IMG/VR virus record: IMGVR_UViG_3300028888_000121
Location: 8,313-72,312 of that record
DNA length: 64,000 nucleotides
Strand: one strand, 5' to 3'
DNA from: a virus
The translations under genes were made by a program, and so were the position numbers. The notes under the pieces are model-generated. The model was not told where the DNA came from. It searched no databases and saw only the letters and a program-made list of their open reading frames with translations. Shown here piece by piece: positions 5,748 to 34,798 of the stretch (within the stretch, counting starts at the first letter, position 1; every line of letters begins with the position of its first letter).

Positions 5748-5766
5748 TCGGCATAGAGTAACCGCA

Positions 5767-5802
5767 AGGGGCTTCTCCACCACAGGAGAGGCCCCTGTTT
5801 TT
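5767..5802 (+). terminator. rho-independent terminator after the capsid gene
   Basis: ggggcttctcc-accaca-ggagaggcccc forms an 11-bp stem followed by TGTTTTT. Confidence 0.65.
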
Positions 5803-8042: not shown

Positions 8043-8615
8043 ATGCTTGAAAGAAAATATCTCGTTCATTACGTCAAGGTGCCGACCAATGTTGACGACT
8101 ATGCGACAAAAATCGGCACCACAAACGAAAGTCAGATTCAGTGGACCTGGGTTCGCATCGGTCAGCACCTCGAAAACTTCGCTGAAGAAATGAACCCGCA
8201 GGTCGATATCCGGAAGAACATCTGGGGTTATCAGACCGCAATCCACAACGGGTATCAGGTCAGCAGCAACGTGGACACCTTCTACGAGACTGACCATGAA
8301 TCTGACAACGACTACTATCTGGACAAATTCCTCGAAGCGATCGTGCTTCATCGCTGGCAGGGTGACATGTGCAGGACCGAGCGCGTTGATGCTCGTGTTT
8401 CTCTGGATGTCATCACGGGCGGCGTGATCAGCTCTGAGGCCGGAAACCTTCTGTGGGCATGGAAAGAGGATTGCTACCTCGTTCCGCAGTCTCACGGCGG
8501 CGATACTTCCGGTGCGCAGATTCCGTTCCAGATCTCCAACCTTGGAAACAGGGAAGATGTGACGACCAAGTTTACTGTCACAAACAAAGTCATGGCAATT
8601 GCGTCTGGAAGCTGA
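8043..8615 (+). CDS. major tail protein, paralog 1
   Basis: 190-aa ORF with GAGGTGA RBS. It shares clear motifs with the next ORF: ERKYL-H, EE(M/L)NPQVD, VDTFY, W(A/V)(W/Y)KED-VPQ and GGDTSG-Q-PFQI. Confidence 0.55.
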   Translation: MLERKYLVHYVKVPTNVDDYATKIGTTNESQIQWTWVRIGQHLENFAEEMNPQVDIRKNIWGYQTAIHNGYQVSSNVDTFYETDHESDNDYYLDKFLEAIVLHRWQGDMCRTERVDARVSLDVITGGVISSEAGNLLWAWKEDCYLVPQSHGGDTSGAQIPFQISNLGNREDVTTKFTVTNKVMAIASGS

Positions 8616-17076: not shown

Positions 17077-20000
17077 ATGGCTAACAGACCTATTGAACAT
17101 GTCTATGTAAACGACACCACATACGATGTCAAAGACATCTACGCAGAGCGCTCGGAAAACAAGGCGAGCGCTTTTTCTGCGGTCCCCGGTGACACAAAGT
17201 TCCCGACTGAGAAACTGGTCAAGGACAATCTGGACCTGAAAGAGAATGCCGCAAACAAAATTACCACCTTCGCCGGAATTGTCCCGAACGACACCCAGTA
17301 TCCGTCTGCGAAACTGGTAAAGGACACCATCGATCAGGTTGTCACGGACCTTGGCGGCAGCATCGACGGAATCGACTTCACGCCTTATGAGCGTCATGCC
17401 AACCGTGTTTCCGTTTTTCAGGCTACCCCGGATGATACACACTATCCGTCTGAAAAACTCGTCAAGGACAATCTGGACGCCCTCAGCACTGGCGTTTCCA
17501 ACGTCAGAACGGTTGTTGTGTCCGCACTTCCTGCAATCGCAGACGCGTCTGAGACGGTAAACTACGTCCTGTACACGAGCGGCCTTGCCCTTCTGTATAA
17601 GAAGATCGAGGGCGCATGGGTCCTGATCAGCGGTTCCAAGGCCTATGTCGGAGACAACCTTCCGTCTACCGGCGATATCTTCACGGAATACTATATTCCG
17701 AACCCGACCGGCGACAACTACCTGCATTATCGGTGGGCTGATCCCATTGCCGCAGACCCGGAGCACGGCACTGAGGCTGTCCCGGGCCGGTTCTATGCAA
17801 TCGGGTCCGACGCGTACTCCAAAGCAGAGGTCGACGAGATCCTTGCCGATTACGAAGTGCTGTCGAATAAGGTTACGTCTATCACTTCCGCATCGACGGA
17901 CACTCAGTATCCTTCCGCAAAGGCCGTCTATACGTCTCTGCAAAGCCTTCAGAGTGCTCTGGAAGGTAAGGTGGAAGATTCCACGCAGGTTGTTTCGAGC
18001 GTTCCTTCGGCTGCTTCTGCCGACGAGAACGTCAACTATGTCGTGAAGCAGGGGACCGGCGCTCTTCTGTACCGCAAGATCGACGGCGTCATGAAGATGA
18101 TCGGTGGCGCGATGGTAAAGGTAGTGTCTGCGCTTCCGGAGGACGGGAACGGCGATCCTGACGGCGATGAGTTCACGGACTACTATGTGGCGACGACAGA
18201 CCCGAAAATCTATCTGCACTATCGGTGGTCCGACACGCTCGGTGACTTCTATGCTGTCGGTGCGGATGCCTACTCAAGAACACAGATCGATAACAAGCTG
18301 TCTGAAATCACCACCAATCACTCCACGGATATCAGCGGTATCAATGATGCCGTGAACGGCCTCGGCAGAGCAATCGAGAGTGCAAATGCCGATATCGACG
18401 AACTGCGCGGGGATATCAATGAGTATTCCATGTCTCTTGTCCAGAACGGCGACGTGTACTTGATTGAGATGTATGAGAACGAAGACACGGAAAACCCGGT
18501 CAGTACCATCACGCTTCCTCATGGAACCGGTGGCGGTGGCGGAACGAGCGGCACAACGATCATGACGGTCGAACGCATTACGCCGACGCCTCTGTCTGTG
18601 ATTCCGACTGATACAATCGTTCTTCAGGTCAACTATTCTTCTGTTGACTCGGACAATGAGACGGTAGACGGATCGTATGTCCTCAAAATGGGCAACGCTG
18701 TTGTTATGACCGGCGCAATGGTGCAGGGCCTCAATAGTTTTAATGTCACCAACTTCTGCACGGTAGGTTCTCAAAAGTTCACCCTCACCGTCACGGACGA
18801 CGGCGGGTCCATGAACACAAAGTCTTGGACTGTGCAGGTTGTCGACGTCCGTATTGAATCAGCCTTCAGCGACAGATACACGAACGCAACCGGGAAGGCT
18901 GTCAACGTCACATACACGCCTTACGGCTCTGTCCCGAAGGTAGTTCATTTCAAGCTGGATGGCGGGGATCTTCCCTCCGTGACGACCTCGGCTTCCGGTA
19001 TCCTTCAGAGTTATTCCGTCCCGGCGCAGTCCCACGGCGCACACCTTTTGGAATTCTGGATGACAGCAACAGTCAACGGTGAAAACCTCGAAACCGACCA
19101 CATCTTCAAAGATATCATCTGGTACGACGAAGCCAGCGACGATCCGGTGATCGGCTGCATTTATCGGTATGACCATTATGGCCTTGCCAATGTGAAGCAG
19201 TACAACACCTTCAATATTCCCTATGTTGTCTATGATCCCAGAACTTCAAACCCGACCGTGGAACTTAGAGTAGACGGCAATCTGGTAAGCGAACTGCATC
19301 TCAGCACGGCGTCCAACACATGGTCCTACAAATCCGATGTTGTAGCAACCCATATCCTGACAATCACCTGCCGCACGACTACGGTTACGCTGCGTGTGAA
19401 TGTGCAGGAGCTTGGATATGACATTCAGCCTGTGACCGCAAACCTTGACTTCGACTTCAACCCTGTCGGAATCACGAACGCGTCTTCAAACAGGCTGTGG
19501 ACCGATGCGAATAACCCGGATGTTAAACTTACGGTCTCCGACAACTTCGACTGGAACAACGGCGGATATCAGGTGGACAGCGACGGAAACCAGTATTTCT
19601 GCGTCCGGTCCGGAACAAGAGCCTATATCTCTCACCATCTGTTCGGAACCGATCCGAAGCAGAACGGCGAAGAGTTCAAGATCATCTTTAAGGTGTCGAG
19701 CGTCCGTGATAAAGATGCGACCTTCCTGACCTGCCTGACCGGCGCGGCCAATGACAAGGTCGGCTTCAAGATGCAGGCCCATGAGGCGACGATCTACACC
19801 TCCACCGGCTCTCTTGTGACCAACTACTGCGAAGACGATATCATCGAATTCGAGTACAACATCAATTCCATCGACCTTGAGACTGACGGCGCGACATCGT
19901 TTATCATGACCTACGAAGACGGCGTGGCCGCGAGACCTCTGCTGTACTCCAACGCGGAAGACTTCCTGCTGTATCAGCTGAACCCGGTGAATATCACCAT

Positions 20001-23000
20001 CGGTTCTGATGACTGCGACGTTTACATCTACCGCATGAAGTCCTACAGTTCCGCCCTGACCGACAGCAATATCCTGTCCAACTTCATTGCGGACGCAAGA
20101 GACTCCGAGACCATGATCAGCCGGTATGAACGCAATCAGATCTACAACGAAAACAATGCGCTCACACCGGAATCCGTTGCTGCGGCGTGCCCGGACCTGA
20201 AAATCATCAAGATTTCCTGCCCGCATTTCACGAACGACAAGAAAGACTATGTCAGAGACACAACGGTACAGTGCCTCCACATGAACGGCGATCAGGTCCT
20301 TGACAACTGGACCATGAGGTATATGTATCACGCCGGACAGGGAACAACCTCCAACCGTTACGGTCTTGCCGGACGCAACATCGATATCATCGGCGGTTTT
20401 GACGGAGAAAGTCAAGTGGTAAGCAAAATTCCATTTGACAGCACCTATATCACGGAGCTTACGCTTGGCGATGGCAGCAAATACTATGGGCAGGACGCGA
20501 AAGTCGCTCTGACCCGGACCTCGGAACCGAATACATGGTTTAACATCAAGGTCAACATCGCTTCCTCCGAAAACGCGAACAACGCGCTTCTGCAGAAGAG
20601 ATATAACCAATACATCCCGTACAAGACCCCAGCGCAGAGAAGAAACTCCAAGCTGAAAAACAGCATGGAATTTGTGAACTGCGTCATCTTCCTTCAGGAA
20701 AACGATCCAGACGTCACCACTCACAGAGAATTCGATGATACCAACTGGCATTTCTATGCGCTCGGCAACATCGGCGACTCCAAGAAAACGGACTTTACCC
20801 GCGTCAATGATCCCACGGACCAGAATGAGTTTGTAGTTGAAGTATCGGACAACACCCTGCCGAACAGCACCTTCGATACCGGATACTACAACGCGGACGG
20901 AAGCATTCGGTACCCGATCTCCATGGCCGAATGGACCGCGACCAATGGATATTCCGAAGTCACGGACTCCACGCTTCTGAATATCAAGAATCTGGGCCTC
21001 CTCTACGAGAGAAGCGGAAACACCTACAGAAAAACCACTGACACCAGCATCGACTCCGGAAAGACCTATTACATGGTCAATTACGTAAGTCCGAAGTATC
21101 GGTCCCTCTATATTGACGAGTACCGTTATAACGTGGACAAGAACGAGTACGACCAGATCAGCGGTTGGGACGCCTCCTTCGAGTTCCGTTATGACGCGTC
21201 CGGTACGAAAGACGGAGAGTCAATGTCCGGCAGCGAAGTCAAAGCACTTCAGACCAGACTCAAACAGGTCTTCCGGAATATGTACGAGTTTGTCATCACG
21301 TCCAGTGATACAGATTTCGTGACGCATTTTGGAGACTGGTTTATCACCGAATCACCGCTGTACTGGTACCTGTTCACAGAACGGTACACGATGATTGATA
21401 ACCGTGCAAAGAACTCCTTCTGGCACTGGGGCAAAACGTATATCACCACGGCAGAAGCTGCGGAGCTCGGTGACGCAAACATCAATGCGGACGGAAACCA
21501 AATCTATATTGTGGATGATGCGGCAGCGGCGATCAATGACGGCTACCGTTTCGACCTGTGGGACTACGACAACGACACCGGCCTCGGTATCGACAACAAC
21601 GGCGAACTGAATATGACCTACGGTCATGAAGACATCGACTACAAGGTAGACGGCGACCCGTCCTCCGGCTGGATCTTCAACGCTGCGGACAGCGTCTTCT
21701 GGCGCAGAATTCGCGGACTGATGGGATCTCAGCTCAGAACGATGTATCAGAGCCGTGAAAGCTTGAACTGCTGGTCCGCAACCTCCCTGATCAACGAGTT
21801 CGACGCATGGCAGGAGCAGTTCCCGGAAGAGCTCTGGCGTCTGGACGTTGAGAGAAAGTATCTGAGACCGTACTATGTCGGCAACCCTGTTGCAGGCATG
21901 GGAGCGACCGCAGACTTCCTCCAGAACATGATGAACGGACGCAAGCGTTATCAGCGCCGTCAGTTTGAACGCGACCAGGAAATCTACATCGGCACCAAAT
22001 ACTTCGGCATGAATCAGTGCGCAGACTCACAGGCAATCTCCTTCCGCTGCAACACGCCTCAGAGTGCTGTGGTTAAGCCGGATTACACCATCAGGATTGT
22101 ACCGTACTCCGACATGTATCTGTCCGTGGCTTATGGTAACTCTTCGCCTCAGACGGTACGTGCCAAAGCCGGTGTGGAGTACACCTTCACCACCACGCTT
22201 ACCACGATGGACGATACGCAGATCCTTATCTACTGCGCTGAAAACATCATGGCCCTGAATGACCTTTCGGCCTGCTATATCAGAGCAAACAACTTCTCGC
22301 AGGCCAAGAGGATGAAGACTCTTGTGATCGGCAGCAACACTCCCGGATACGCCAACAACTTCATCACGGCGCTGCAAATTTCTGGCGGCAACGCTCAGGA
22401 TACGCAGACCCTTGCTCTGGAAACGCTGGATATCCGCAACTGCCCGAACCTCACCGGATCTGTGAACTTCTCCAACTGCCCGGACCTCAAAACGCTTCTG
22501 GCAGAAGGAACGTCCTTGTCCGGCGTCACCTTCGCAACGAACGGCAAGATTCAGACCGCACATCTCCCAAGTACAATCGCCGGTCTGACTCTGAGAAACC
22601 TGAATTACCTGACCGACCTTGAACTGGCAGGGTACGACAACCTCGTTACTCTTGTAAGTGAATACTGTGCTATGGACCCGCTTTCCATCGTATATGCGGC
22701 CCAGAACTCACTCCAGATTCTCCGAGTGCTCGGAATCAACTGGCAGTCCTACAACACAGATCTGCTGAATAAGATTTACGCAATGAGCACGTCGGTACTG
22801 AGCGGTACATGGGAAGTCACAGGGTATATTCGTCAGTCTGAAATTGATCGGTTCGGCACCAAGTGGACCGACCTCGACCTGATCTACAACGAAGACAACA
22901 TCATCCCTCAGCAGATTGTAACGTATCGGAACTGGGACGGCACCGAACTGGCAAGGACCCTCGTAGACACCGGCTCCAACCCGCCCAACCCGATTGACGC

Positions 23001-24945
23001 GGGAATCATCACGGAAATCCCCACAAGAGAACCGGACGCCCAGTATGTTTACACATACAGCGGATGGGACGGACTGGACCAGATCGTTTACAGCAGCACG
23101 GACGTCACTGCCGCATTCAGCACGGAGCTTCGTGAATACGAGGTTTCGTGGTATATCCACGTCGGTGACCTTCCTCTCCTGACAAAGAAGGTCACTTACG
23201 GAGACGAGGCAATCTATGACGGCGAGACGCCCACGGATAACACGGCAGAAACCGTCAGCCACACATACCGCGTCTTTAGAGACTGGGACAAGAGTACCGG
23301 CTGCGTCACAGGCAATCTGTCCGTTTATGCGCAGTTCGATGAAGCAACGATTCCTCCGGTTGGAAAAGAGCTTGCGGACATGACAGACGCGGAGAGATAC
23401 GCAATTCGCAGAAACGGTCTGGCGAGTTCGAGGTATACGGTTGGAGACTACTTCAATGTCGTGCAGGGCTATGATCCGGAATTTATAGACCCGAATCCTT
23501 ACGCAGACGGATCATATCACCCGGGGTACGTGAAGCAGCAGATGCTTCTTGAAAACCGGTGGTTTGACGGAACGGACTACTACGACACCGGCATTAAGCT
23601 GTTCGATGCGAATTCCCCGTCCTTCACGCTCGCGATTGACTACGAATTCGTACTGGGCAACATTGCCGGGGCAACCTTGGCGTCCTGCGTCGACACGAAT
23701 ACGAACGTCGGGTTCATGCTCAATTTCAGCCTGAATACATCCACAAGAACAAGCTCCTTCTCAAGAATCACGTGGGGCAGCAACACACATCAGAGATGCG
23801 GCTTCTGCGGGCAGAGAAACATTATTGTTCTCAGATATACCAAAGGCTCCAATAACCTGATGGTTTATTCCTTCAACGGCACGTCAAGCTCTTCGTATAA
23901 TATCTACGACACGGATACCGCAAGGAACCTGATTGTCGGCCCCAAAGCAGCGACCCATTCACAGAGCTTGGTATTCGGCGGAGTTGTTTACAACGAGGCT
24001 GGGTACATCACAGGAAACCTCGCAAAAGGCTGGATACACTACGCAAAAGTCTGGTACGGCGATCTTGGCGACGATGTGTGCAAGCAGATTGTCAACTGGC
24101 CGCACGAGACCATGAAATGCGTGTATGTCGGAAGCAACCGTCAGTTTGTCGCCGGAAGCAATATCACCAGAGCAGACGCACAGTTCGTGTTTGCATCCGC
24201 GATGCCCTACATGAAAGCATTCAGCAACACGTCGGCCACATCGGAGTCGTGGGAAACGGCGACACTTCGCCAATTCATCCATGACAGAATCGTGAAGTCG
24301 CTTCCGAAGACGCTGCAAAGTGCCCTGCAAAAGGTCCGGATTGTAACGAAGGCAGGCAGCTACACCAACCTTCAGGTCAATACGGACGACTACATGTATC
24401 TTCTGTCTATCCGTGAAGTCTATGGAGATATAGGAAGCGGATACTTTGACCCCGAACAGGAAGCCGGGTATCTCTCTTATTACTCTTCCGATTTCGCGAA
24501 AGCGCAGGTCTATCTCCCAGGAGCGCAGCTTGAAACAAGACAGAGCAATGTTCCCGGAAGAAGAATCTTCTCACAAAGCACAGACCCGACGAGAAGCGGC
24601 GAGCAGGTCAAAGAAGGCGATATCTGGATTGACACTTCTTATTCCTACTATTATGTTTATTACTTTGTGTCTCAGGACACGGTGAATAAGCATAGTATGC
24701 TTGGCGGCAGAGTGATCAACAACGGCACGTCTACGACCCAGAGCTATTGCAGAATCCCGTATGACAGCAACGGCTCTCCCGGACTGTGGGTGCAAGGGTA
24801 CGAATACTGGATGACCAGATCTCCGTACTACTACAACGGCAGCTCCAACTATGACGCCTATCGGTACTACAGGTATCGCATGAACAGCACGACCTACGTG
24901 AGCGGGACAACAAGTGAACCGTTTGTTGTCGGCTTCTCAATCTAA
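17077..24945 (+). CDS. giant tail fibre / host-recognition protein, 2622 aa, with internal duplications and an LRR-like segment
   Basis: Single uninterrupted ORF with GAGGTGA RBS. The N-terminal ~420 aa repeats a D-T-x-[YF]-P-[ST]-x-K-[LA]-V-[KY] motif four times. That region also carries duplicated VNYV-G-LLY-KI-G and YLHYRW-D-FYA-G-DAYS modules. An LRR-like run (CPNLTGSVNFSNCPDLKTLLAEGTSLSGVTF..., nt ~22440-22680) lies in the second half. Confidence 0.75.
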   Translation: MANRPIEHVYVNDTTYDVKDIYAERSENKASAFSAVPGDTKFPTEKLVKDNLDLKENAANKITTFAGIVPNDTQYPSAKLVKDTIDQVVTDLGGSIDGIDFTPYERHANRVSVFQATPDDTHYPSEKLVKDNLDALSTGVSNVRTVVVSALPAIADASETVNYVLYTSGLALLYKKIEGAWVLISGSKAYVGDNLPSTGDIFTEYYIPNPTGDNYLHYRWADPIAADPEHGTEAVPGRFYAIGSDAYSKAEVDEILADYEVLSNKVTSITSASTDTQYPSAKAVYTSLQSLQSALEGKVEDSTQVVSSVPSAASADENVNYVVKQGTGALLYRKIDGVMKMIGGAMVKVVSALPEDGNGDPDGDEFTDYYVATTDPKIYLHYRWSDTLGDFYAVGADAYSRTQIDNKLSEITTNHSTDISGINDAVNGLGRAIESANADIDELRGDINEYSMSLVQNGDVYLIEMYENEDTENPVSTITLPHGTGGGGGTSGTTIMTVERITPTPLSVIPTDTIVLQVNYSSVDSDNETVDGSYVLKMGNAVVMTGAMVQGLNSFNVTNFCTVGSQKFTLTVTDDGGSMNTKSWTVQVVDVRIESAFSDRYTNATGKAVNVTYTPYGSVPKVVHFKLDGGDLPSVTTSASGILQSYSVPAQSHGAHLLEFWMTATVNGENLETDHIFKDIIWYDEASDDPVIGCIYRYDHYGLANVKQYNTFNIPYVVYDPRTSNPTVELRVDGNLVSELHLSTASNTWSYKSDVVATHILTITCRTTTVTLRVNVQELGYDIQPVTANLDFDFNPVGITNASSNRLWTDANNPDVKLTVSDNFDWNNGGYQVDSDGNQYFCVRSGTRAYISHHLFGTDPKQNGEEFKIIFKVSSVRDKDATFLTCLTGAANDKVGFKMQAHEATIYTSTGSLVTNYCEDDIIEFEYNINSIDLETDGATSFIMTYEDGVAARPLLYSNAEDFLLYQLNPVNITIGSDDCDVYIYRMKSYSSALTDSNILSNFIADARDSETMISRYERNQIYNENNALTPESVAAACPDLKIIKISCPHFTNDKKDYVRDTTVQCLHMNGDQVLDNWTMRYMYHAGQGTTSNRYGLAGRNIDIIGGFDGESQVVSKIPFDSTYITELTLGDGSKYYGQDAKVALTRTSEPNTWFNIKVNIASSENANNALLQKRYNQYIPYKTPAQRRNSKLKNSMEFVNCVIFLQENDPDVTTHREFDDTNWHFYALGNIGDSKKTDFTRVNDPTDQNEFVVEVSDNTLPNSTFDTGYYNADGSIRYPISMAEWTATNGYSEVTDSTLLNIKNLGLLYERSGNTYRKTTDTSIDSGKTYYMVNYVSPKYRSLYIDEYRYNVDKNEYDQISGWDASFEFRYDASGTKDGESMSGSEVKALQTRLKQVFRNMYEFVITSSDTDFVTHFGDWFITESPLYWYLFTERYTMIDNRAKNSFWHWGKTYITTAEAAELGDANINADGNQIYIVDDAAAAINDGYRFDLWDYDNDTGLGIDNNGELNMTYGHEDIDYKVDGDPSSGWIFNAADSVFWRRIRGLMGSQLRTMYQSRESLNCWSATSLINEFDAWQEQFPEELWRLDVERKYLRPYYVGNPVAGMGATADFLQNMMNGRKRYQRRQFERDQEIYIGTKYFGMNQCADSQAISFRCNTPQSAVVKPDYTIRIVPYSDMYLSVAYGNSSPQTVRAKAGVEYTFTTTLTTMDDTQILIYCAENIMALNDLSACYIRANNFSQAKRMKTLVIGSNTPGYANNFITALQISGGNAQDTQTLALETLDIRNCPNLTGSVNFSNCPDLKTLLAEGTSLSGVTFATNGKIQTAHLPSTIAGLTLRNLNYLTDLELAGYDNLVTLVSEYCAMDPLSIVYAAQNSLQILRVLGINWQSYNTDLLNKIYAMSTSVLSGTWEVTGYIRQSEIDRFGTKWTDLDLIYNEDNIIPQQIVTYRNWDGTELARTLVDTGSNPPNPIDAGIITEIPTREPDAQYVYTYSGWDGLDQIVYSSTDVTAAFSTELREYEVSWYIHVGDLPLLTKKVTYGDEAIYDGETPTDNTAETVSHTYRVFRDWDKSTGCVTGNLSVYAQFDEATIPPVGKELADMTDAERYAIRRNGLASSRYTVGDYFNVVQGYDPEFIDPNPYADGSYHPGYVKQQMLLENRWFDGTDYYDTGIKLFDANSPSFTLAIDYEFVLGNIAGATLASCVDTNTNVGFMLNFSLNTSTRTSSFSRITWGSNTHQRCGFCGQRNIIVLRYTKGSNNLMVYSFNGTSSSSYNIYDTDTARNLIVGPKAATHSQSLVFGGVVYNEAGYITGNLAKGWIHYAKVWYGDLGDDVCKQIVNWPHETMKCVYVGSNRQFVAGSNITRADAQFVFASAMPYMKAFSNTSATSESWETATLRQFIHDRIVKSLPKTLQSALQKVRIVTKAGSYTNLQVNTDDYMYLLSIREVYGDIGSGYFDPEQEAGYLSYYSSDFAKAQVYLPGAQLETRQSNVPGRRIFSQSTDPTRSGEQVKEGDIWIDTSYSYYYVYYFVSQDTVNKHSMLGGRVINNGTSTTQSYCRIPYDSNGSPGLWVQGYEYWMTRSPYYYNGSSNYDAYRYYRYRMNSTTYVSGTTSEPFVVGFSI

Positions 24946-25796: not shown

Positions 25797-26798
25797 TTGT
25801 CTGTAGCAAGTAACGTCACGATCGTCACATTCAAACCGGGCAAAAGACACGCGATTGTAGATCCTCCGCTTTGGCAATACGACGTGGGGCAGATTTTGAA
25901 GTTCGGAGACCTTGACCTTCCTTCTGTGTATGAAGTCCAGTTCTCCAACGAACCGTTCAAAGGGAAAGCCAAGCCTCAGATTGGCGGACCGGACGGGGTG
26001 GAGATCCCGAACGAGTATTTTCTGTCCGGCGCTTCGATCCACGCATGGCTGTATCTTCATGTTGGAGCGAATGACGGTGCGGTTGAATACCATGTCGAAA
26101 TCCCGATCAACCGCAAGTCCGAACGCGTCGAAGAGGAATTTACGCCTGTCCAGAGAGACTTTGCGGAACAGACCCTTGCAGCACTCACACAAGTTTCGGC
26201 GGAGGTTACGACCGCGAGAGATGAAACCATCGAGGCCGCAGAAAGTATCCTTGGTGCAGAAGAAAGGGTTGCCGCCCATGCGGATCAGGTAGCCGCAAAC
26301 GCCCAAGCGGCGGCTGAGTCGGAGGTCAATGCGAAAGCCTCGGAAGACGCGGCGAAACTGTCTGAGGACAACGCCAAAGTATCTGAGGACAACGCGAAAG
26401 AGTCCGAAACCAAAGCCAAGGAATACGCGGATGCAGCCAAGGTCTCTGAGGACAACGCGAAAGAGTCGGAAGACAATGCAAAGCTGTCCGAAACGAACGC
26501 GAAGTCTTCTGAGGAAGCCGCGCAGCAGTCACAAGAGACTGCTGCAACCTCGGAATTTCACGCTGTAGCCGCGAGAAATGCGTCAGAAGAAGCGAGAGAC
26601 GCTGCCTATGATGCAAGGGACCAAGCGGCGGACTATGCTGAGGCGGCGCGGCAAGTAGCGACAGAGATGGGATTTGTCAACTTCTACATTGATGAGAACG
26701 GCGACCTGATCATGCTGAAAACCATCAATGTTACGGATATCAACTTTACTCTTGAGGAAGGAGATCTGATTTTTCATGCCTACTATCGAGGAACATGA
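25797..26798 (+). CDS. tail-fibre-associated protein with 8-aa (S-E-D-N-A-K-x-x) tandem repeats
   Basis: TTG start after GGAGGTAGAGGAG. The nt ~26332-26520 region holds about seven imperfect 24-nt repeats encoding (A/V)SEDNAK(E/L). The ORF overlaps the DGR target gene start. Confidence 0.45.
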   Translation: MSVASNVTIVTFKPGKRHAIVDPPLWQYDVGQILKFGDLDLPSVYEVQFSNEPFKGKAKPQIGGPDGVEIPNEYFLSGASIHAWLYLHVGANDGAVEYHVEIPINRKSERVEEEFTPVQRDFAEQTLAALTQVSAEVTTARDETIEAAESILGAEERVAAHADQVAANAQAAAESEVNAKASEDAAKLSEDNAKVSEDNAKESETKAKEYADAAKVSEDNAKESEDNAKLSETNAKSSEEAAQQSQETAATSEFHAVAARNASEEARDAAYDARDQAADYAEAARQVATEMGFVNFYIDENGDLIMLKTINVTDINFTLEEGDLIFHAYYRGT

Positions 26799-29700
26799 CG
26801 GTCTCGTCGATGTAAAAACCAATCTCGGTCATGTCAGCGCCTACGCCATTGCCAAAGCTCACGGTTTTGAGGGGACTGAGGCAGAATGGGAGGCTATGAT
26901 TGCAAACGCCGGTACCTACGGACAGCAGGCTATGGCTTCTCAGGCAGCAGCCGAAACGGCGAAAAATGCAGCAGAAACCGCGCAGGCTGCTGCGGAAGCT
27001 GCGCAGGCGGCAGCGGAAGACGCAAGGGACCGGACCGGCGAAGAACTTGCAAACAAGGTTGACGTTGTCGCCGGTAAAGGACTCAGCAGCAACGACTATA
27101 CCGATGCCGAAAAAGAAAAGCTGGCCGCGATTGAGGAAGGCGCGAACAAGAACGTCACCGTCGACTGGAACGCGACCTACGGCGACGCCTTCATCCGAAA
27201 CAAACCGAGAAATCTGGTCCAAGACGAGAATTACGTCCACACAGACAACAACCTGACGGATGCGCTGCTGGAGAAACTGGAAAACATCGAGGCCGGTGGT
27301 CAGGTGAACGTGCAGGGGGACTGGACCGAGACTGACACCGAGTCCGATGCCTTTATCCGGAACAAGCCCGAAAACCTTGTACAGGATGCCAACTACGTAC
27401 ACACAGACGAGAACTTCACCAGCGCACAGAGACAGAAGCTTCAGAACATTGAAGCCGGTGCCGAAGTCAACGTACAGGCGGACTGGACCGCCGTTTCCGG
27501 CGACGCCGCAATTCTGAATAAACCGGAACATCTTGTCCAGGACGCGGATTATGTGCACACGGACAACAACTACACCACGGAAGAAAAAATGAAGCTTGCC
27601 GGGGTGGAGGCTGGCGCGGAAGTCAATGTGCAGGCTGACTGGGCAGAGACGGACAGCACGAGCGATGCGTTCATTAAGAACAAGCCTCTGACCGACGTAG
27701 ATAACGCTCTCAGTGATACGTCCACTGATCCTGTACAGAATAAGGTCGTCAAGGCGGCTCTGGATGAAAAGGTAGATAAGGTTGCCGGGATGCAGCTCTC
27801 TCAGAACAGCTTCACGAACGGTGAGAAAGAGAAGCTTGCGTCCATTGAAACAGGAGCAACAAACGTTACGGTTGACTCCGCAATCTCGCAGAATTCCGAT
27901 AACCCGGTATCGAGTAAGGCTATCTACACAGAGCTTTCCAAGAAGGTTAATTCAAGCGGATCGAAGCAGCTTTCCGATGAGAATTTCACTTCTGAAGAGA
28001 AAACAAAGCTTGCCGGTATCCAGAACGGCGCTACCAACGTAAGCGTTGATGTTGCAATCACTCAGAACTCCAACAATCCGGTCACGAGTGCGGCAATCTA
28101 CGCGGAGCTTGCGAAGAAGGTTGACGCGGACGGCGGTGCTGGGCTCTCAGACAATAATTTCACCGATGCTTATAAAGAAAAGCTTGATGGAATTGCCTCG
28201 GAAGCTACAAAGACGATTGTAGATGCTACGATCACCGAAAATTCCACGAATCCTGTTACCAGCGCGGCAGTATTTGCAGCACTGGCAACGAAAGTGGATG
28301 CGGACGGTGGAGCCGGACTCTCGGATAACAACTTCACAGACGCATACAAGACAAAGCTGGAAGGAATTGAGGCCGGTGCTAACAAGATCACGGTAGATTC
28401 CGCGACTTCCACGACTTCCACCAATCCGGTGCAGAACAAGGTCATAACCGGAGCTGTCAATACCGAAAATACCAGAGCCACAACGGCAGAGAACGATATC
28501 AAGAACAATCTGATTGCCGTTTCCGATACTCAGCCGACCGCTGCAACTACGAAGCTGTGGGTCAATACGAATTCTGATGAAGACACCGTCATGATTCCGA
28601 CTCTGGAAGATGTGGCGGCTTCTTGGTTTGTGGATTCCGATTACAAGGCCAAGATGAAGAAGTACTTTGAATTGAGCGGCTGCAATGCAATGCAGGATCT
28701 TACCTCCATCTGCGATAAGTGGTACAGAGCGACAAGAACCGGATGGACAGGCGGTGTGAGATTTGCGGTCCCTGCTTCCGGCGCGGCAGCGAACTCAGAC
28801 GGTACAAAAACCGGAGACAATGCCGGACTGACCTGCGTTCCGTCTACCACAGAACAGGCGAATACGGACGATTACAAGAACCTTCCACTGTTTGCCTGTG
28901 TTGACTGCAATGTATATCTGGATGATACCGGAAAGCCGCACATTACCGGCATTGATGGCGTCGGCGGCGTGTTCGAGCGGAACAATCCGGAAAAGATTGT
29001 CGGCGTTCTGCAAATGGCTGGATGGGTGCGGTTCGTCAACAACGGCGAGACCTATGGATGGGACTACACCGATGAAGAGAATGCGAGCGGCTTCCATCCG
29101 TTGAGTGAAGCGGTAGAGCTTGCGGACAACTCGGTCCGAAGTTGGGTTGTGCATGGCAAGTACAACTTTGGCGAGAACTGGACCTGCTGTTCCGGCGTCA
29201 AAACAAAGGTTTGGAATGTGTCCCACAACACACAGCTTTCCGGCGTTCGGACCCAGTGGGGAACAAGGTACTGCGGCGCAACGAGCGCGGATGACGCATG
29301 GCTCAAACTGATGCTTTATCTCAAATATGGTCAGCTCGATTCCGACCGTATTCTCCACGGCTGCAATAACTACAACTATGAGTACCAGCCTGCCCTTGCC
29401 GAAACCGGAGTGGAAAGAATCCTTCTCACGACCGCGCAGGCCGCGAACCTGATTGTCGGTTCAACGATTGTCCTTGCAGCATCGAAACGTGCTCAGAGCA
29501 ACGTTCTGGACCGCGTGAGAATCACGGAAATCCGGACAGTCGAAGTAGATGGGGCTTCTTACGGCGCTGTTTATGTGGACAATGGCGGCACCACGTTTGA
29601 TACGACAACGGAAATGTGGCTGTCTACCATGCAGTGGTATACCGGCAGCACGGACGACGTCCTCGGCAATGACGGCGGTATCGATCCCGCCTCGGATAAG

Positions 29701-30183
29701 TACCCGGTCAAGCTTCAAGGAATTGAATACATGGTCGGATGCTACGAGGCGATGGGAGATACCATGCTGATCTACGGTGCCAACAACGGAGTGAACTGCT
29801 GCACGCCTTGGGTATGCAGAGATGCCACAAAACTGTCTACGAGCAAGACGAGCGATTATGTGAGCTGCGGTCTTGGCATTCCGACACCGGCCTCTGCTGC
29901 GTGGCAGTATCCGAAACAGATGCACGGAGACAATGACCTGCCAGAACTGATCTTCCCAGTAGATAACGGCGGAAGCACCTCCGGTGGCCCACGCGATGGT
30001 TTTTACACGCTTGCCAATACGAGCGGCACCTATGAGTGGCTGCGCCTCGGCCGCCTGTACTACGGCGTCGGGGATGCTGGGTTGTCGTGCGGTCTCGGTG
30101 GCTGCGGCCTCGCGTACGCGTACTGGAGCATCGGCGGGCGGCTTTCTGTAACCGGTAATAGGGGTGAATTCCAAGCGGCCTAA
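26776..30183 (+). CDS. DGR target protein: 1135-aa tail fibre/receptor-binding protein with a C-terminal variable region
   Basis: AGGAAGGAGA RBS. The N-terminal part has two families of ~50-aa tandem repeats. The C-terminal 36 codons (nt 30036-30141) form the VR cognate of the downstream template repeat. Positions that are AAC/AAT codons in the TR are diversified here. Confidence 0.85.
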   Translation: MPTIEEHDGLVDVKTNLGHVSAYAIAKAHGFEGTEAEWEAMIANAGTYGQQAMASQAAAETAKNAAETAQAAAEAAQAAAEDARDRTGEELANKVDVVAGKGLSSNDYTDAEKEKLAAIEEGANKNVTVDWNATYGDAFIRNKPRNLVQDENYVHTDNNLTDALLEKLENIEAGGQVNVQGDWTETDTESDAFIRNKPENLVQDANYVHTDENFTSAQRQKLQNIEAGAEVNVQADWTAVSGDAAILNKPEHLVQDADYVHTDNNYTTEEKMKLAGVEAGAEVNVQADWAETDSTSDAFIKNKPLTDVDNALSDTSTDPVQNKVVKAALDEKVDKVAGMQLSQNSFTNGEKEKLASIETGATNVTVDSAISQNSDNPVSSKAIYTELSKKVNSSGSKQLSDENFTSEEKTKLAGIQNGATNVSVDVAITQNSNNPVTSAAIYAELAKKVDADGGAGLSDNNFTDAYKEKLDGIASEATKTIVDATITENSTNPVTSAAVFAALATKVDADGGAGLSDNNFTDAYKTKLEGIEAGANKITVDSATSTTSTNPVQNKVITGAVNTENTRATTAENDIKNNLIAVSDTQPTAATTKLWVNTNSDEDTVMIPTLEDVAASWFVDSDYKAKMKKYFELSGCNAMQDLTSICDKWYRATRTGWTGGVRFAVPASGAAANSDGTKTGDNAGLTCVPSTTEQANTDDYKNLPLFACVDCNVYLDDTGKPHITGIDGVGGVFERNNPEKIVGVLQMAGWVRFVNNGETYGWDYTDEENASGFHPLSEAVELADNSVRSWVVHGKYNFGENWTCCSGVKTKVWNVSHNTQLSGVRTQWGTRYCGATSADDAWLKLMLYLKYGQLDSDRILHGCNNYNYEYQPALAETGVERILLTTAQAANLIVGSTIVLAASKRAQSNVLDRVRITEIRTVEVDGASYGAVYVDNGGTTFDTTTEMWLSTMQWYTGSTDDVLGNDGGIDPASDKYPVKLQGIEYMVGCYEAMGDTMLIYGANNGVNCCTPWVCRDATKLSTSKTSDYVSCGLGIPTPASAAWQYPKQMHGDNDLPELIFPVDNGGSTSGGPRDGFYTLANTSGTYEWLRLGRLYYGVGDAGLSCGLGGCGLAYAYWSIGGRLSVTGNRGEFQAA
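30036..30141 (+). repeat. DGR variable repeat (VR)
   Basis: The 106 nt are collinear with TR segment 1 (30261-30324) plus TR segment 2 (30518-30559). There are 15 mismatches and every one falls on an adenine of the TR. The 3' end is the GC run GGCGGGCGG. Confidence 0.85.
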
Positions 30184-30195
30184 GACGCTTGGAAG

Positions 30196-30212
30196 AGGGG
30201 ACTTTGTCCCCT
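30196..30212 (+). promoter_or_regulatory. GC-rich hairpin downstream of VR (candidate DGR homing-associated hairpin, or a transcription terminator)
   Basis: aggggac-ttt-gtcccct forms a 7-bp G/C-rich stem 55 nt after the VR end and 13 nt after the target stop codon. Confidence 0.45.
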
Positions 30213-30260
30213 TATAAAACAATAACAAATTGGGATGGATTGTGCATCCGCTGGTGCCCG

Positions 30261-30324
30261 GTGGCTGCGCCTCGGCAACCTGAACAACGGCGTCGGGAAT
30301 GCTGGGTTGTCGTGCGGTAACGGT
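30261..30324 (+). repeat. DGR template repeat, 5' segment (TR-a)
   Basis: 64 nt matching VR 30036-30099 with 7 mismatches, all at TR adenines. In VR phase it reads W L R L G N L N N G V G N A G L S C G N G. Confidence 0.85.
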
Positions 30325-30517
30325 AAGCAAATTGCCCCTTCATATGGCGACATATGATTGAACTTCGAATAACGGGGGAAGCCTAAATCTTGAAAAAGAC
30401 AAGGTAATCCCGTGGCGTCAACTATGAAAATAGAACGCCCGAACGACTGACAAGAAGCATCTCTTTTGTGGAGATGATGATACAGTCTACTCCATGCGGA
30501 AACGTATGGTAATCAGG
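30325..30517 (+). other. 193-nt intervening sequence splitting the DGR template repeat; candidate self-splicing (group-I-like) intron or other excisable structured RNA
   Basis: It has no counterpart in VR. The flanks join exactly between codons (ggt|aac) and together reconstitute a continuous 106-nt TR. The 5' exon ends in U and the insertion ends in G. Two GNRA-capped hairpins are present: catatg-GCGA-catatg (30341-30356) and ccatgcg-GAAA-cgtatgg (30492-30509). There is no ORF, and stops occur in the TR frame. Confidence 0.45.
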
Positions 30518-30559
30518 AACAACGGCCTCACGAACGCGAACTGGAACATCGGCGGGCGG
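30518..30559 (+). repeat. DGR template repeat, 3' segment (TR-b)
   Basis: 42 nt matching VR 30100-30141 with 8 mismatches, all at TR adenines. It reads N N G L T N A N W N I G G R. It shares the GGCGGGCGG 3' end with VR, after which the sequences diverge. Confidence 0.85.
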
Positions 30560-30787
30560 ATTTTTAGAATGATTTTGACACGAATTTGATGAGAGGCGAT
30601 ATGCCTCAAGCACAATTATTCCCACGCTGCGGCGAAAATGTGTCGTTCCGGCACCGGGGGCAGTTATGAGATTTGAAACTGATCCCCGGGTGTATGACGA
30701 ATAAGGTCATGCACGGGCTTAGTAGAAAAACCGAAAGGCCCTGAGATTCAAAAAGATTCTTTGCCATTGGAGGGATAGACCTTAAAC

Positions 30788-31975
30788 ATGAAAACGTACT
30801 GCAAAAAGGTAGATCCCTCTGATGTTTCTACGATTGAACCGTTTATTTATGATGCTTTGTATTCCAAGCTTGGCCGCAAAGACTATTCTGACTTTGTTTC
30901 AAGATACTGCGACATGCGCCCGAAAGAGATTCGAAAAAAGAAGCATGAAGGTATCGCGCACTATCCGGAACTGGAAAAGGCGGTCAGAAACATTGCGCTG
31001 GATATATCTTTGAGGATCAGGCAGCGGTCATTGGATTTGGAGCCTATACGGTTTTCTGTGCGCACGGATGGCCTGAGCAAGAAAACGAGAATTATAGGCA
31101 TTGAGAGCGTGATACAGCAGATCATTGAACATGTTGCTGTCGGCTGCATGACTGAGCTTTGGAAAGCAAAGTATGAGTATCACCAGTATGCAAGTATCAA
31201 AGGGAAGGGTCAACTAAAGGGCGCAAGGGCAATACAGAGATGGACAGAAGAGGGCAAGACAAAATACTTCGTAAAGTTGGATGTGAGAAAGTGCTTCCAA
31301 AGCCTGAGCCGCGAAACTGCGATGCGCTGGCTTAAAAGAGATATTGGGAAAAACGGTCAAATGCTTTGGCTTGTGGACTCTCTCTTGACAATGCACGGAG
31401 AAGGTCTTGTGATCGGAAGTCTTCTGTCACAGTTCTTATGCAACTATTTTATGAGTTATGCGTATCGGTATGTGATGTCGCTTTCAAAAGAAAGACGGGG
31501 TAAGAAAATTAATATGGTTTCCTGTGCTCTGTTCTATATGGATGACATATTGCTGTGCAGCAATGACCGAAGAAATCTCGTCATGGCGGTAAGAAAACTG
31601 ATCGCCTATATGAAGAAAAGTTTTGGACTGGACATCAAACCAGAATGGCATGTCAAGCGTCATGTGGACTGCGGCATTGATATGATGGGGTATGTGATCA
31701 AGTATAACGGCAAACTGAGAATACGTCCCAGAGTGTTCATACGGGCCCGCAGAGCTTTCGTGCGGTCTGCAGAAGGTGATAACTCAATCAAGATTCAAAC
31801 TCGCGTAGCGTCTTATTACGGCTTCTTCAAAGCGGCAAGGATTATGAAGCTGAGGACGGTACATTTTATTCCGAAAACCGGAAAGAGACGAACAGTCAAC
31901 GTCCGGGCAATGCAGAAGAAATCAGCTATACTGACAGGTGCAGAAGCAAGGAGGGAAATGGAATGCGCTGCATAA
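30788..31975 (+). CDS. DGR reverse transcriptase
   Basis: 395-aa ORF with the catalytic YMDD motif (LFYMDDILL) and the DGR-characteristic (I/L)GxxxSQ motif (VIGSLLSQFLCNYF). It begins 228 nt downstream of the TR. Confidence 0.9.
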   Translation: MKTYCKKVDPSDVSTIEPFIYDALYSKLGRKDYSDFVSRYCDMRPKEIRKKKHEGIAHYPELEKAVRNIALDISLRIRQRSLDLEPIRFSVRTDGLSKKTRIIGIESVIQQIIEHVAVGCMTELWKAKYEYHQYASIKGKGQLKGARAIQRWTEEGKTKYFVKLDVRKCFQSLSRETAMRWLKRDIGKNGQMLWLVDSLLTMHGEGLVIGSLLSQFLCNYFMSYAYRYVMSLSKERRGKKINMVSCALFYMDDILLCSNDRRNLVMAVRKLIAYMKKSFGLDIKPEWHVKRHVDCGIDMMGYVIKYNGKLRIRPRVFIRARRAFVRSAEGDNSIKIQTRVASYYGFFKAARIMKLRTVHFIPKTGKRRTVNVRAMQKKSAILTGAEARREMECAA

Positions 31976-32292
31976 GTGTATCTGCTGAGAAGCAGAAAGA
32001 TGTTGAAGTAAATATCTTTGATGGAACTGCGCACATCTATCTCAGAACCGGTCATGTAGAAAAGACCGGCGAAGGTGAAGGCTCTGAGGGCGGAAACTAC
32101 TGGGAATGCGAAGAGGCATATATGACCTGCGATGCGGATGACGCTCCGGCAATTGATGAGATCGGAGAAGCGTTTGACGCGTGGTTTGGTTATGTGTCTG
32201 ACTGGCAGGCACCGAAAGAGAAGACCCTGAAAGAGCTTCAGGCAGATATCGAATATATAGCGGCAATGTCCGGTATTGATTTGGAGGTGTAA
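31963..32292 (+). CDS. hypothetical acidic protein overlapping the RT 3' end
   Basis: 109-aa ORF rich in Asp/Glu. It is not Avd-like, since Avd proteins are basic. Confidence 0.35.
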   Translation: MRCISVSAEKQKDVEVNIFDGTAHIYLRTGHVEKTGEGEGSEGGNYWECEEAYMTCDADDAPAIDEIGEAFDAWFGYVSDWQAPKEKTLKELQADIEYIAAMSGIDLEV

Positions 32293-32295
32293 CCG

Positions 32296-32466
32296 GTGGC
32301 ACTTCACAGCAAAAACTATCTTATGATCAAGAGAAATTTTGACCGGCAGCTTTGGAGCGTTGACAAGGTCAGAAGCCTTGTCGGTGTGCCGAGAACCGGA
32401 ATCACAGCGGCGGAATTCTTTGAGATAACAGGCGAGGAATTCGGCCCAGAGACTACCGAAAGCTGA
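32296..32466 (+). CDS. possible small protein (56 aa)
   Basis: GTG start 5 nt after a GGAGGTG RBS. It falls below the 60-aa cutoff of the ORF track. Confidence 0.3.
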   Translation: MALHSKNYLMIKRNFDRQLWSVDKVRSLVGVPRTGITAAEFFEITGEEFGPETTES

Positions 32467-32479
32467 GGTTGTACTTGAC

Positions 32480-32647
32480 ATGAAGAAAGCTTTGGTATTG
32501 GAAAAAGAAGACATTCGCAAGATCCTTGCTGAGAAGTACAAGGTGGACAGCAAGAGTATTATCACAAATGCTTATTCGTACACGGTTGTTCTGGATGACA
32601 TAGAAGATACGGATAAGCCCGATAATTCAGTAGAGGGCGGTGGTTAA
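32480..32647 (+). CDS. possible small protein (55 aa)
   Basis: ATG ORF ending 3 nt before the next gene. It falls below the ORF-track cutoff. Confidence 0.25.
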   Translation: MKKALVLEKEDIRKILAEKYKVDSKSIITNAYSYTVVLDDIEDTDKPDNSVEGGG

Positions 32648-32650
32648 TCT

Positions 32651-34798
32651 ATGGCATTGGAGTTCAAAAGAAACAAGCTCAATGTAAAAGACGGAACCGG
32701 TACATTCGTTGAGATTCCAGTTCTCGGTGAGCAGGAAACCGAAAAAGCAACTGCCGGTGAGCTCGCAATTGAGGTAAGCAGAGCGACTGCTGCAGAAGAT
32801 GCTCTTGCAGAGCAAGTCAGCCGTCTTCAAAAAGTGGTGGGTTCTCCGTTCGTTGCGAACACTGCTGCGAGCATGACAAACACTGACAGAGTGTATGTGT
32901 ATACCGGCAGCGAATCGGGTTATACAGCGGGCAATTGGTACTACTACGACGGCAGCGCTTGGGTGTCTGGCGGTGTATATAATTCCGCAGGAATGAATAC
33001 TGACACGACGCTTGCAATGGCCGGAATTCCTGCTGACGCAGAAGCCACGGGAGAAGCGGTTGCTGAGTTAAGTCGCCAATTAAGTGACTTAGAGGACACC
33101 GTCACCGACTCCACCACCGGACTTGACACCAAAGCTCCTGTGATCTTGGAGACAGCCTCCGGAGCAATCGCCAGCTTTTCCGACGGTGCGGATTCAATGC
33201 CTATCAAGAAGCTGGTGGCGCAGATCGAGCCTGTGCAGGATTTGCACGGGTATAGCAATCCGTGGCCTGCGGGTGGCGGAGCTAACAGATGGGATGAAGA
33301 GTGGGAAGATGGAAATATTGATGCCAACGGTAATAAGGTAACTGCTACAACTCTTATAAGGAGCAAGAACTATATTCAGGTCGAACCTAACACAACGTAT
33401 TGTACAAATGTTTTCAGAGTGTTTGAGTATGATGAGAGCAAACATTTCCTGTTAAGGACGCAGGTGGCAAACGATTTTACAAAGACCGAAGTATTTACAA
33501 CGCAAAGCACCACCCGTTATTTGCTGTTCGTTATGGCTACTTCATACGGCACAACATACAACAACAACATCGCTATCAACTACCCATCAACAGTAACCAC
33601 CTACTCCCCCTACTCCAACATCTGCCCGATCAGCGGATGGACTGGGGCGGAGATTGAGCAGACGGGTGTGAATGTGTGGGATGAAGAGTGGAGAATTGGA
33701 TATTATACATCTACGGGCGAGTATTCAAGAGTTGATAATTGTATTGCGAATGTAAATCCAATTAGTGTTAAGCCAAACACACGGTATTATTTATATATGG
33801 ACTCGAGATATGTAAATAGTGCGCGCGTTGTGTACAGGGATTTAAACCGTAACTTCATATCAGCCGTGAGTCTTGGGAACGTATTTGCTTTTACAACCCC
33901 TAATAACTGCTATTTTATTGATTTCGGCACCTTCACAGCACCGGCTGTAACTGCATATAACAACGACATCAGCATCAACTACCCAGCAACAGACACCACC
34001 TACCACCCCTACACCGGCAACCAAATCTCCGTCAACTGGGAAGACGAAGCTGGGACAATCTACGGTGGCACGGTCACGCTCAATGAGGATGGGTCTGCGG
34101 ATGTAATAAGTCGTTATCAACTTAAAGCACTTAATGGTAGTGAAACTCCACAGGGGGGATATGCCGTAAATGCAAATACTGTTAGCAGATATTTCACTAT
34201 ATTACCTAGGACTCCTATTAATAACCCAGCATCTATTTCCGAAGAAGGATACATGCCTTTTCTAAAAAGTAATTTGTTCCAAGTGAAAAGTAGAAGTGTT
34301 TGGGGTTCTGCGGCAGAAAATAATGTTTGGTGTTGGACTATTAATAACTATGATCAGTTGCACTTAGCTTTCAGTAATAATGCATTGGGCATTACAACTG
34401 AAAGTTCTTCCGCAGAAGTTGATGCCGCTGTAAAAGCGTGGCTTGCGAATAACCCTTGTTATTTCACTTTGCCATTAACGGAAGAGAACTATCAAACCTA
34501 CCATTTCGACAACATCGGCCAGCTCTACACCTTCCTCGGCACAAACAACGTCTGGTGCGATACCGGAGACGTAGAGGTAACTTATCCCGCTGACACCAAG
34601 CTGTTCATCGAGAAGCTCACCCAGCCGACAGAGGATGATATGACGGCAAATGCCAACATTGCCGCGAACACCTTCTTCATGATCGGCAACACCTTGTATT
34701 TCAGCACTGCCGCAATCGCACAGGGAGCAACGATTATTCCAGGCACTAACTGCAATGTGGTAAGCCTTGCAGATGCACTCAATCAACTCAATACCTGA
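32651..34798 (+). CDS. tail fibre protein, paralogous in its N-terminal module to ORF 13960..15930
   Basis: 715-aa ORF containing YVYTGSESGYTAGNWYYYDGSAWV, which matches YAYTGSERGYTTNKWYSYSGSAWV in ORF 13960..15930. No VR-like C-terminus is present. Confidence 0.55.
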   Translation: MALEFKRNKLNVKDGTGTFVEIPVLGEQETEKATAGELAIEVSRATAAEDALAEQVSRLQKVVGSPFVANTAASMTNTDRVYVYTGSESGYTAGNWYYYDGSAWVSGGVYNSAGMNTDTTLAMAGIPADAEATGEAVAELSRQLSDLEDTVTDSTTGLDTKAPVILETASGAIASFSDGADSMPIKKLVAQIEPVQDLHGYSNPWPAGGGANRWDEEWEDGNIDANGNKVTATTLIRSKNYIQVEPNTTYCTNVFRVFEYDESKHFLLRTQVANDFTKTEVFTTQSTTRYLLFVMATSYGTTYNNNIAINYPSTVTTYSPYSNICPISGWTGAEIEQTGVNVWDEEWRIGYYTSTGEYSRVDNCIANVNPISVKPNTRYYLYMDSRYVNSARVVYRDLNRNFISAVSLGNVFAFTTPNNCYFIDFGTFTAPAVTAYNNDISINYPATDTTYHPYTGNQISVNWEDEAGTIYGGTVTLNEDGSADVISRYQLKALNGSETPQGGYAVNANTVSRYFTILPRTPINNPASISEEGYMPFLKSNLFQVKSRSVWGSAAENNVWCWTINNYDQLHLAFSNNALGITTESSSAEVDAAVKAWLANNPCYFTLPLTEENYQTYHFDNIGQLYTFLGTNNVWCDTGDVEVTYPADTKLFIEKLTQPTEDDMTANANIAANTFFMIGNTLYFSTAAIAQGATIIPGTNCNVVSLADALNQLNT

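Follow-up and report, generated by a model that had tools for sequence, protein, structure and literature searches.

The diversity-generating retroelement (DGR) of Bordetella phage BPP-1 consists of a variable repeat (VR) in mtd, a template repeat (TR), the reverse transcriptase (RT) bRT and Avd. When the td intron of phage T4 was put in the BPP-1 TR, spliced and adenine-mutagenised cDNA was detected (Naorem et al. 2017, PMC5703328); only the ligated exons reached the cDNA or the VR, and no product was obtained when the intron was inverted or defective in splicing. Interrupted, split or inserted TRs are nowhere mentioned in the DGR survey of Wu et al. (PMC5758913). Here we describe a DGR in the virus record IMGVR_UViG_3300028888_000121 (positions 8,313 to 72,312, analysed as one stretch of 64,000 nt, hereafter the window, whose numbering is used throughout) in which the TR carries a 193-nt group I intron. 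A natural case of this kind appears to be unreported, since in the literature, searched short of most subscription journals, we found no published natural intron in a TR, only the engineered one; two further papers deal with introns and with DGRs, but not in combination. An earlier insertion of the td group I intron in the BPP-1 TR was reportedly made by Guo et al. in 2008. To our knowledge, the group I introns known from bacteria and phages interrupt genes for proteins, tRNAs or rRNAs.

The locus shares with BPP-1 the order target-VR, TR, RT and a target in a receptor-binding or tail-fibre module. It is also like BPP-1 in that its nearest solved RT has the IGSLxSQ and YMDD motifs, the mismatches between the repeats are confined to adenines, a GC-rich 3' boundary differs between VR and TR, a hairpin follows the VR and a structured spacer separates TR and RT. 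A first-pass annotation of the DNA had called the order of the parts canonical, but the layout departs from the canonical one in that the TR, unlike that of BPP-1, is split by the 193-nt group I intron, the most notable trait of the locus and one that the annotation missed. Both genes in that annotation, the 1135-aa target (26776..30183, + strand) and the 395-aa RT with IGSLLSQ and YMDD (30788..31975, +), are confirmed by the list of open reading frames (ORFs). The VR (30036..30141, +) lies at the 3' end of the target, with 42 nt from its end to the stop codon of the 1135-aa ORF, and encodes ...WLRLGRLYYGVGDAGLSCGLGGCGLAYAYWSIGGR. The 5' piece of the TR, which we call exon 1 (30261..30324, +), ends in ...AACGGT, the final T being the U of a U·G pair at the 5' splice site, and the 3' piece, exon 2 (30518..30559, +), begins with AACAACGG and ends in a GC run common to both repeats. 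The TR thus reads ...GCGGTAACGGT, then 193 unrelated bases (30325-30517), then AACAACGGCCTCACG..., and homology to the VR extends to 30563, with A30560 facing C30142 of the VR. A repeat finder returned the same arrangement as two separate pairs, 30036-30099 with 30261-30324 at a spacing of 225 nt and 30105-30145 with 30523-30563 at a spacing of 418 nt.

When 30261-30324 is joined to 30518-30563, the VR aligns with the TR over 110 nt without a gap. Within 30036-30141, 15/15 mismatches fall at TR adenines (hypergeometric P 2.6e-13), the count given by the first-pass annotation, which holds only after the 193 nt have been removed; counting position 30142 as well, the figure is 16/16, with 23 adenines among the 110 positions (P = 3.5e-14). 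The VR is identical at all 87 non-adenine positions to its own TR and to that of no relative; therefore, the split TR, minus exactly 193 nt, was the template. The codons GGT/AAC AAC, the slash marking the junction, are continuous in the VR and carry no scar, and a MAFFT alignment of the genomic TR with three VRs and six intron-less TRs contains a single 193-column gap. The variable TR codons are 9 AAC, 1 AAT and 1 ACG, not the 10 AAC and 1 AAT counted before, and the residues that the VR encodes there (R,Y,Y,D,L,G,C,A,Y,Y,S) are as previously read; a twelfth adenine-containing codon (ATC) varies in another genome. These 12 A-templated codons allow ~9e12 possible protein variants. A further VR had been suggested as something to look for, and a search of the 64-kb window with the joined TR, its adenines made degenerate, found only the known VR.

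The interrupting sequence (30325..30517, +; 193 nt, no ORF) was identified by a search of 30000-30900 against all Rfam families, in which RF00028 matched at 30315-30509 (+) over model positions 1-253 of 253, with 37.2 bits (E 9.6e-8 in the region, E 6.8e-6 in a scan of the whole window). It is the sole Rfam match at E <= 0.01 in the 64-kb window. Since the score is under the gathering score of 50, the structure was checked independently, and all helices were confirmed base by base. P1 (30322-26 / 30332-36) spans the 5' splice site and is followed by P2 (30341-46 / 30351-56, GCGA loop) and by the first strand of P3 (30363-66 / 30454-57, CUUC/GAAG), which forms a pseudoknot with P7. The P4 (30372-77 / 30408-13), P5 (30381-84 / 30402-05) and P5a (30388-91 / 30396-99, GAAA loop) helices are followed by P6 (30414-18 / 30435-39) and P6a (30422-25 / 30430-33, GAAA loop), P7 (30445-49 / 30483-87), P8 (30458-64 / 30470-76) and P9 (30492-98 / 30503-09, GAAA loop). 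Near the 3' splice site we found P9.0 (30490-91 / 30515-16, CU/AG), P10 (30332-33 / 30518-19, UU/AA) and the terminal G at 30517. Four of the intron loops are GNRA tetraloops. The minimum free energy fold alone recovers P1, P2, P4-P5-P5a, P6-P6a, P7 enclosing P8, and P9, with z = -4.9 against shuffles. U30324, with which exon 1 ends, forms a U·G wobble with G30334 in P1, the pair that marks group I 5' splice sites.

Related cores were found in phages of Firmicutes. With the P4-P5 core as query, blastn gave short matches of up to 87% identity in unannotated intergenic stretches of five Enterocloster phages (CB457P1/P2 and CB473P1-3), Bacillus phage Crookii and Enterococcus phage EF1, and a custom covariance model of the core detects the Enterocloster, Bacillus and Enterococcus phage homologues at E 9e-10, 6e-9 and 4e-7; Rfam makes no call on these cores at E < 0.01. 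In an alignment of only four sequences, fitted to the model, 92.6% of the cells are paired and 21/42 pairs are changed on both sides, values that 0/500 shuffles reach, while slid controls pair at 31-46%. The P4-P5-P6, P7 and P9 cores are homologous to those of the TR intron and their helix changes are compensatory; in addition, the Enterocloster phage intron has the same 3' end, ...CAGG. On the strength of these covarying cores, we assign the 193-nt interruption to a group I intron lineage that, judging from sequence and fold, circulates in Firmicutes phages. The cores are located at 1390-1715 of L058 (Enterocloster phage CB457P1, OP172753.1; relatives are designated here by locus numbers), ~940-1190 of L059 (Crookii) and ~985-1105 of L060 (EF1). 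In CB457P1 the core lies between coding sequences (CDSs) 00063 and 00062, both annotated 'hypothetical protein', which may be two halves of one split gene. The Firmicutes-phage introns, which are situated between protein-coding genes or inside them, are longer and have peripheral insertions, probably ORFs, whereas the TR intron lacks an ORF and sits inside a non-coding RNA known only as an RT template. In viral contigs, three exact or gapped patterns and one degenerate pattern of the TR intron matched nothing but the same IMG/VR contig, the degenerate pattern found no copy in metagenome contigs, and the whole cassette has no blastn match among GenBank phages. Three matches of the degenerate pattern in bacterial genomes had no Rfam support as introns and were taken as chance.

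The site without the intron is preserved in relatives. A search with the RT protein yielded 26 viral and 27 metagenomic loci. In twelve related viral DGR loci (L003-L012, L014-L016; RT 61-84% identical) the TR is contiguous and collinear with the joined TR, and ten of these TR matches are gapless over all 110 nt at 73-92% identity, that of L012 being cut to 98 nt by the end of its contig. The empty site reads ...GGCAACGGC followed directly by AACAACGG... in these relatives. On self-comparison of the loci, a two-piece TR occurs only in L001/L027, which are the same contig, and the TR is contiguous in ~25 other loci with an assessable VR and TR; the metagenome contigs returned by the RT search are all either intron-less relatives or truncated. 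In the intron-bearing lineage alone, T (GGT) precedes the intron; every relative has C (GGC) there, and the window VR carries this lineage-specific T at the splice-site position.

We then compared intron-bearing assemblies with one another. Four independent assemblies, the window, L001 (IMG/VR, 146 kb), L061 (ENA, 147.7 kb) and L062 (Logan SRR9006805, 6.7 kb), have identical introns and TR pieces and contain three VR alleles; an exact record of the window target protein comes from a JGI/IMG contig of 72 kb. Over 8.3 kb, L001 and the window are 98.2% identical, and the L001 VR differs at 13 of 110 nt, 13/13 of them A-cognate (P = 4e-11), of which 5 are templated by exon 1 and 8 by exon 2. Outside the VR, the block 28250-33000 contains only ~10 differences between these two. 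Between the window and L061 or L062, just 2 of 7188 nt are different, those at 30101 and 30104, both of which are A-cognate (P ~1e-5) and fall in the two codons directly 3' of the junction. The polymorphism confined to A-cognate positions that the first-pass annotation proposed to look for is thus present, as three VR alleles in four assemblies. A pattern built on the VR flanks found further alleles in viral contigs only in L027, the L001 contig. Since all VR alleles are linked to the same intron-bearing TR, retrohoming after the arrival of the intron is the simplest reading, and by this comparison of sequences diversification most likely continued after it. Such retrohoming would require that the intron be removed at the RNA level, before reverse transcription.

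We consider it highly probable that a genuine group I intron interrupts the TR and is removed by splicing before the RNA is reverse transcribed. In the proposed pathway, the TR region would be transcribed as exon 1, intron, exon 2 and spacer, and the intron would remove itself by two transesterifications, with the 5' cut after U30324, paired with G in P1, and the 3' splice site after the terminal G30517, placed by P9.0 and P10. Ligation of the exons would give a 106-nt TR with the same layout as the uninterrupted TRs of related phages. The RT would then prime in the structured spacer, copy the spliced TR and misincorporate at adenines, and the cDNA would replace the VR as far as a GC-rich boundary resembling the initiation of mutagenic homing (IMH) element. 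The three VR alleles and the twelve intron-less TRs all fit removal of exactly 193 nt, which points indirectly to precise ligation of the exons. The td-tagged BPP-1 TRs give spliced, A-mutagenised cDNA (PMC5703328), and the splicing route is therefore mechanistically possible. The engineered TR is artificial and leaves a 36-nt exon tag, whereas the intron described here is natural, is without a tag and would restore the ancestral TR exactly; as far as it was compared, this 193-nt intron is not closely related to td.

Several points weigh against this pathway. Splicing is deduced from DNA only, the intron is seen in one phage lineage only, and its RF00028 score does not reach the gathering score. 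P1 contains just three exon base pairs and P10 just two. Since AA stands on both sides, the junction could be placed with an uncertainty of 0-2 nt, which only the U/terminal-G rule resolved. The 2-nt difference of L061 and L062 is unlike one full retrohoming event; it could reflect a short conversion tract, the consensus of a mixed population or selection on point mutations. Finally, Pfam searches found no Avd-type gene in the cassette, in the flanking ORFs or among ten small ORFs of the window. Unlike in BPP-1, there is no avd between VR and TR, where no ORF of any kind was found, and none was recognised nearby. The cDNA machinery may therefore differ from that of BPP-1, or Avd could be encoded elsewhere in the genome, of which the window covers 64 kb of ~147 kb.

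Other explanations dispense with splicing. The intron might be recent and have disabled the DGR, the VR alleles being older and the intron-bearing TR having spread among them by recombination or homing, a history that would suit both the restriction of the intron to a single lineage and the distance of just 2 nt, unlike that of a full retrohoming event, between the VRs of the window and L061. It has, however, to account for a ~99.8-100% identical block with the same intron and TR in which the VR nevertheless has 13 A-cognate differences on both sides of the junction. This would take crossovers less than ~100 nt from each VR edge, or repeated, independent homing by an intron with no visible homing endonuclease, and the VR itself carries the lineage-specific T of the splice-site position; we regard a disabled DGR as improbable. 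The RT could instead have skipped the interruption, with no RNA splicing, by a template jump that leaves exon 2 at its start and resumes where exon 1 ends. Retroelement RTs are able to switch templates, and a folded intron would hold the exons close via P1 and P10. Every catalytic element of a group I core is present, though, the covariation among homologues shows selection for the fold, and the boundaries conform exactly to the rule of U·G and terminal G, a precision that would be unexpected of such jumps in three independent alleles. Template jumping therefore strikes us as less probable still.

It is very unlikely that each TR piece is a half-template in its own right and retrohomes separately to its half of the VR, with an unrelated insertion between the pieces. 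Each piece taken alone does have A-only mismatches (6/6 and 7/7 in L001), but the first piece has neither an IMH*-like 3' end nor a spacer behind it, the relatives have one contiguous TR, and the VR runs through GGT/AAC AAC without a scar. We give almost no credence to a chimeric contig, in which the interruption would be an artefact of assembly: VR/TR repeats do break assemblies, and one contig (L002) stops exactly at the TR 3' end, yet four assemblies that differ in source and assembler all have the same 193 nt at this site. Insertion of the intron by the DGR RT through reverse splicing into TR RNA was also considered, and was rejected because DGR cDNA is targeted to the VR, not the TR, and would have scrambled the adenines of the intron.

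If the intron is spliced as proposed, the locus would be a natural version of the experiment showing that DGR information passes via RNA, with the VR copying the spliced template and not the template DNA. It also puts a group I intron into a non-coding RNA known to be made for reverse transcription, a context on which we found no paper, and would imply an order of events on the DGR RNA, with splicing coming before priming and cDNA synthesis. Splicing may thereby limit or regulate mutagenic homing. We speculate, as an idea we hold to be rather unlikely, that the intron gates hypermutation and finds a safe harbour in the TR. Because only spliced TR RNA would give usable cDNA, splicing efficiency, which may depend on GTP, Mg2+, folding and host factors, would set the timing and frequency of tail-fibre rewriting, and the TR would be a harbour in that it is never overwritten and is constrained in sequence. 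Such a gate would make the locus a natural diversity generator under the control of a ribozyme, and group I introns would have a new kind of niche in it. In practical terms, DGR finders that need a contiguous TR/VR pair would report a 64-nt or a 41-nt half-repeat here, or miss the element; other split templates may therefore hide in existing data. The arrangement also suggests a design for engineered DGR diversifiers with an intron marker that leaves no scar.

The remaining parts of the cassette are those of a DGR. The RT matches Pfam RVT_1 (E 5e-15) and PHROG 1423 (reverse transcriptase) and contains LVIGSLLSQF and FYMDDI. Its best solved relative is 8ub7_A, a 328-aa chain deposited as 'Reverse transcriptase', which we take to be BPP-1 RT (bRT); identity to it is low (E 5.7e-10), and the IGSLLSQ/IGSLTSQ and YMDD motifs of the two proteins are aligned. 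The 228 nt between the TR 3' end and the RT start form a spacer (30560..30787, +) that is a conserved structured RNA. In an RNAalifold analysis of this region with 8 relatives (window plus L003, L004, L009, L010, L014, L015 and L016), 47 pairs were found, 14 of them with compensatory changes. A long-range helix pairs ATTTTTGA, just 3' of the TR, with TTCAAAAAG, just before the RT start, and the block CGCTGCGGCGAAAATGYGTCGT is invariant. By analogy with BPP-1 (PMC5703328), the spacer probably serves as the scaffold on which the RT of this DGR family binds and primes. The intron, which stops 42 nt short of the TR 3' end, leaves the boundary, hairpin and spacer elements intact.

At the 3' boundary, both repeats end in CGGCGGGCGG and then diverge, as had been noted before; the next base is C in the VR but A in the TR. 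The IMH-like boundary of the VR (30132..30165, +) begins with this GC run (30132-30141), common to the TR, and is VR-specific from C30142. After CGGCGGGCGG, the VR continues with C-TTT and the TR with A-TTT (T for A in L009 and L007) before the two diverge, a contrast that holds in the window, L001 and the nine relatives with an assessable VR (L003, L004, L005, L007, L009, L010, L014, L015 and L016). It matches the IMH/IMH* logic of BPP-1, and we refer to the boundary as IMH-like by that analogy. A hairpin read from the sequence 3' of the VR (30169..30194, +) pairs TTCCAAGCG with CGCTTGGAA and places the target stop codon in its loop; compensatory changes keep the stem in relatives (TTCAGCCC/GGGCTGAA and ATCAGGC/GCCTGAT). 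By comparison with BPP-1, this hairpin may have a role in target recognition. Next to it is a terminator-like hairpin, GGGGAC-TTT-GTCCCC, at 30197-30211.

The first-pass annotation placed the DGR on the C-terminus of a tail fibre. Tail and tail-fibre PHROGs matched by the neighbouring genes and by the repeats in the N-terminal half of the target, the A-specific mismatches, the VR alleles and the RT motifs agree with this, and action of the DGR on the C-terminus of a tail-fibre-module protein is supported. In the PHROG search, the C-terminal ~500 aa of the target correspond to PHROG 17147 (function unknown; E 1.6e-114), and the N-terminal half, which contains repeated motifs, has weaker matches to tail-protein and tail-fibre PHROGs; the Pfam search matched no family. 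In contrast to BPP-1, neither sequence nor fold comparison detected a match of the C-terminal domain to Mtd or CLec; the alignment-based model is too weak over the VR for a CLec fold to be judged from it, and a single-sequence AlphaFold2 model of the C-terminal 500 aa has a predicted local distance difference test (pLDDT) score of only 33. The window also codes for a major head protein, a protease, a tape-measure protein and an endolysin, and the DNA therefore comes from a large tailed phage. A small downstream protein is listed as XkdX family in the gene table of another assembly.

Several repeats and ORFs were observed around the target. Three repeats of 156-162 nt (27183-27646) lie in its N-terminal half, and seven tandem 21-nt repeats (26310-26504), encoding an A-K-x-S-E-D-N-type heptad, lie in a 333-aa tail-fibre-like ORF at 25797-26798. 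The divergence between the window and L001 is concentrated mostly in 26000-27250. Directly upstream in the tail module is a 2622-aa ORF (17077-24945, +) with a tyrosine-rich C-terminus; the TR search with degenerate adenines ruled this C-terminus out as a second VR. On the other side of the cassette, an acidic 109-aa ORF (31963-32292, +) overlaps the RT stop codon by 13 nt. It has 41-77% identity and the same overlap in every RT relative with downstream sequence, and it matched nothing in Pfam, NCBIfam or PHROG. The protein could be a non-Avd accessory factor, or an XkdW-like or next tail-module gene product, as an XkdX-like ORF follows.

Some of the related loci have features of their own. 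The L002 contig (IMGVR_UViG_3300021399_000169), which is 99% identical to the window, begins with its position 1 at window position 30563, the TR 3' end; the break probably arose in assembly, from the VR/TR repeat or from heterogeneity of the VR. In L011, two copies are found at 5435-5544 and 5687-5796. The one at the TR position has 11 A, compared with 22-25 in others, and only 8/19 of the mismatches between the two copies fall on adenines of this one; L011 is either a decayed DGR or a pair of VR-like copies with the true TR elsewhere. L009 (5294-5637) and L007 (1621-1965) contain ~230 extra nt between VR and TR, which brings the VR-TR spacing to 452-454 nt, compared with 225-264 nt in the other relatives, and the extra sequence includes an imperfect direct repeat, GTTATGTAAACCGATTTCG / GATTATGTAAACTGCTG. 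The VR of L007 also has a 3-nt deletion relative to its own TR.

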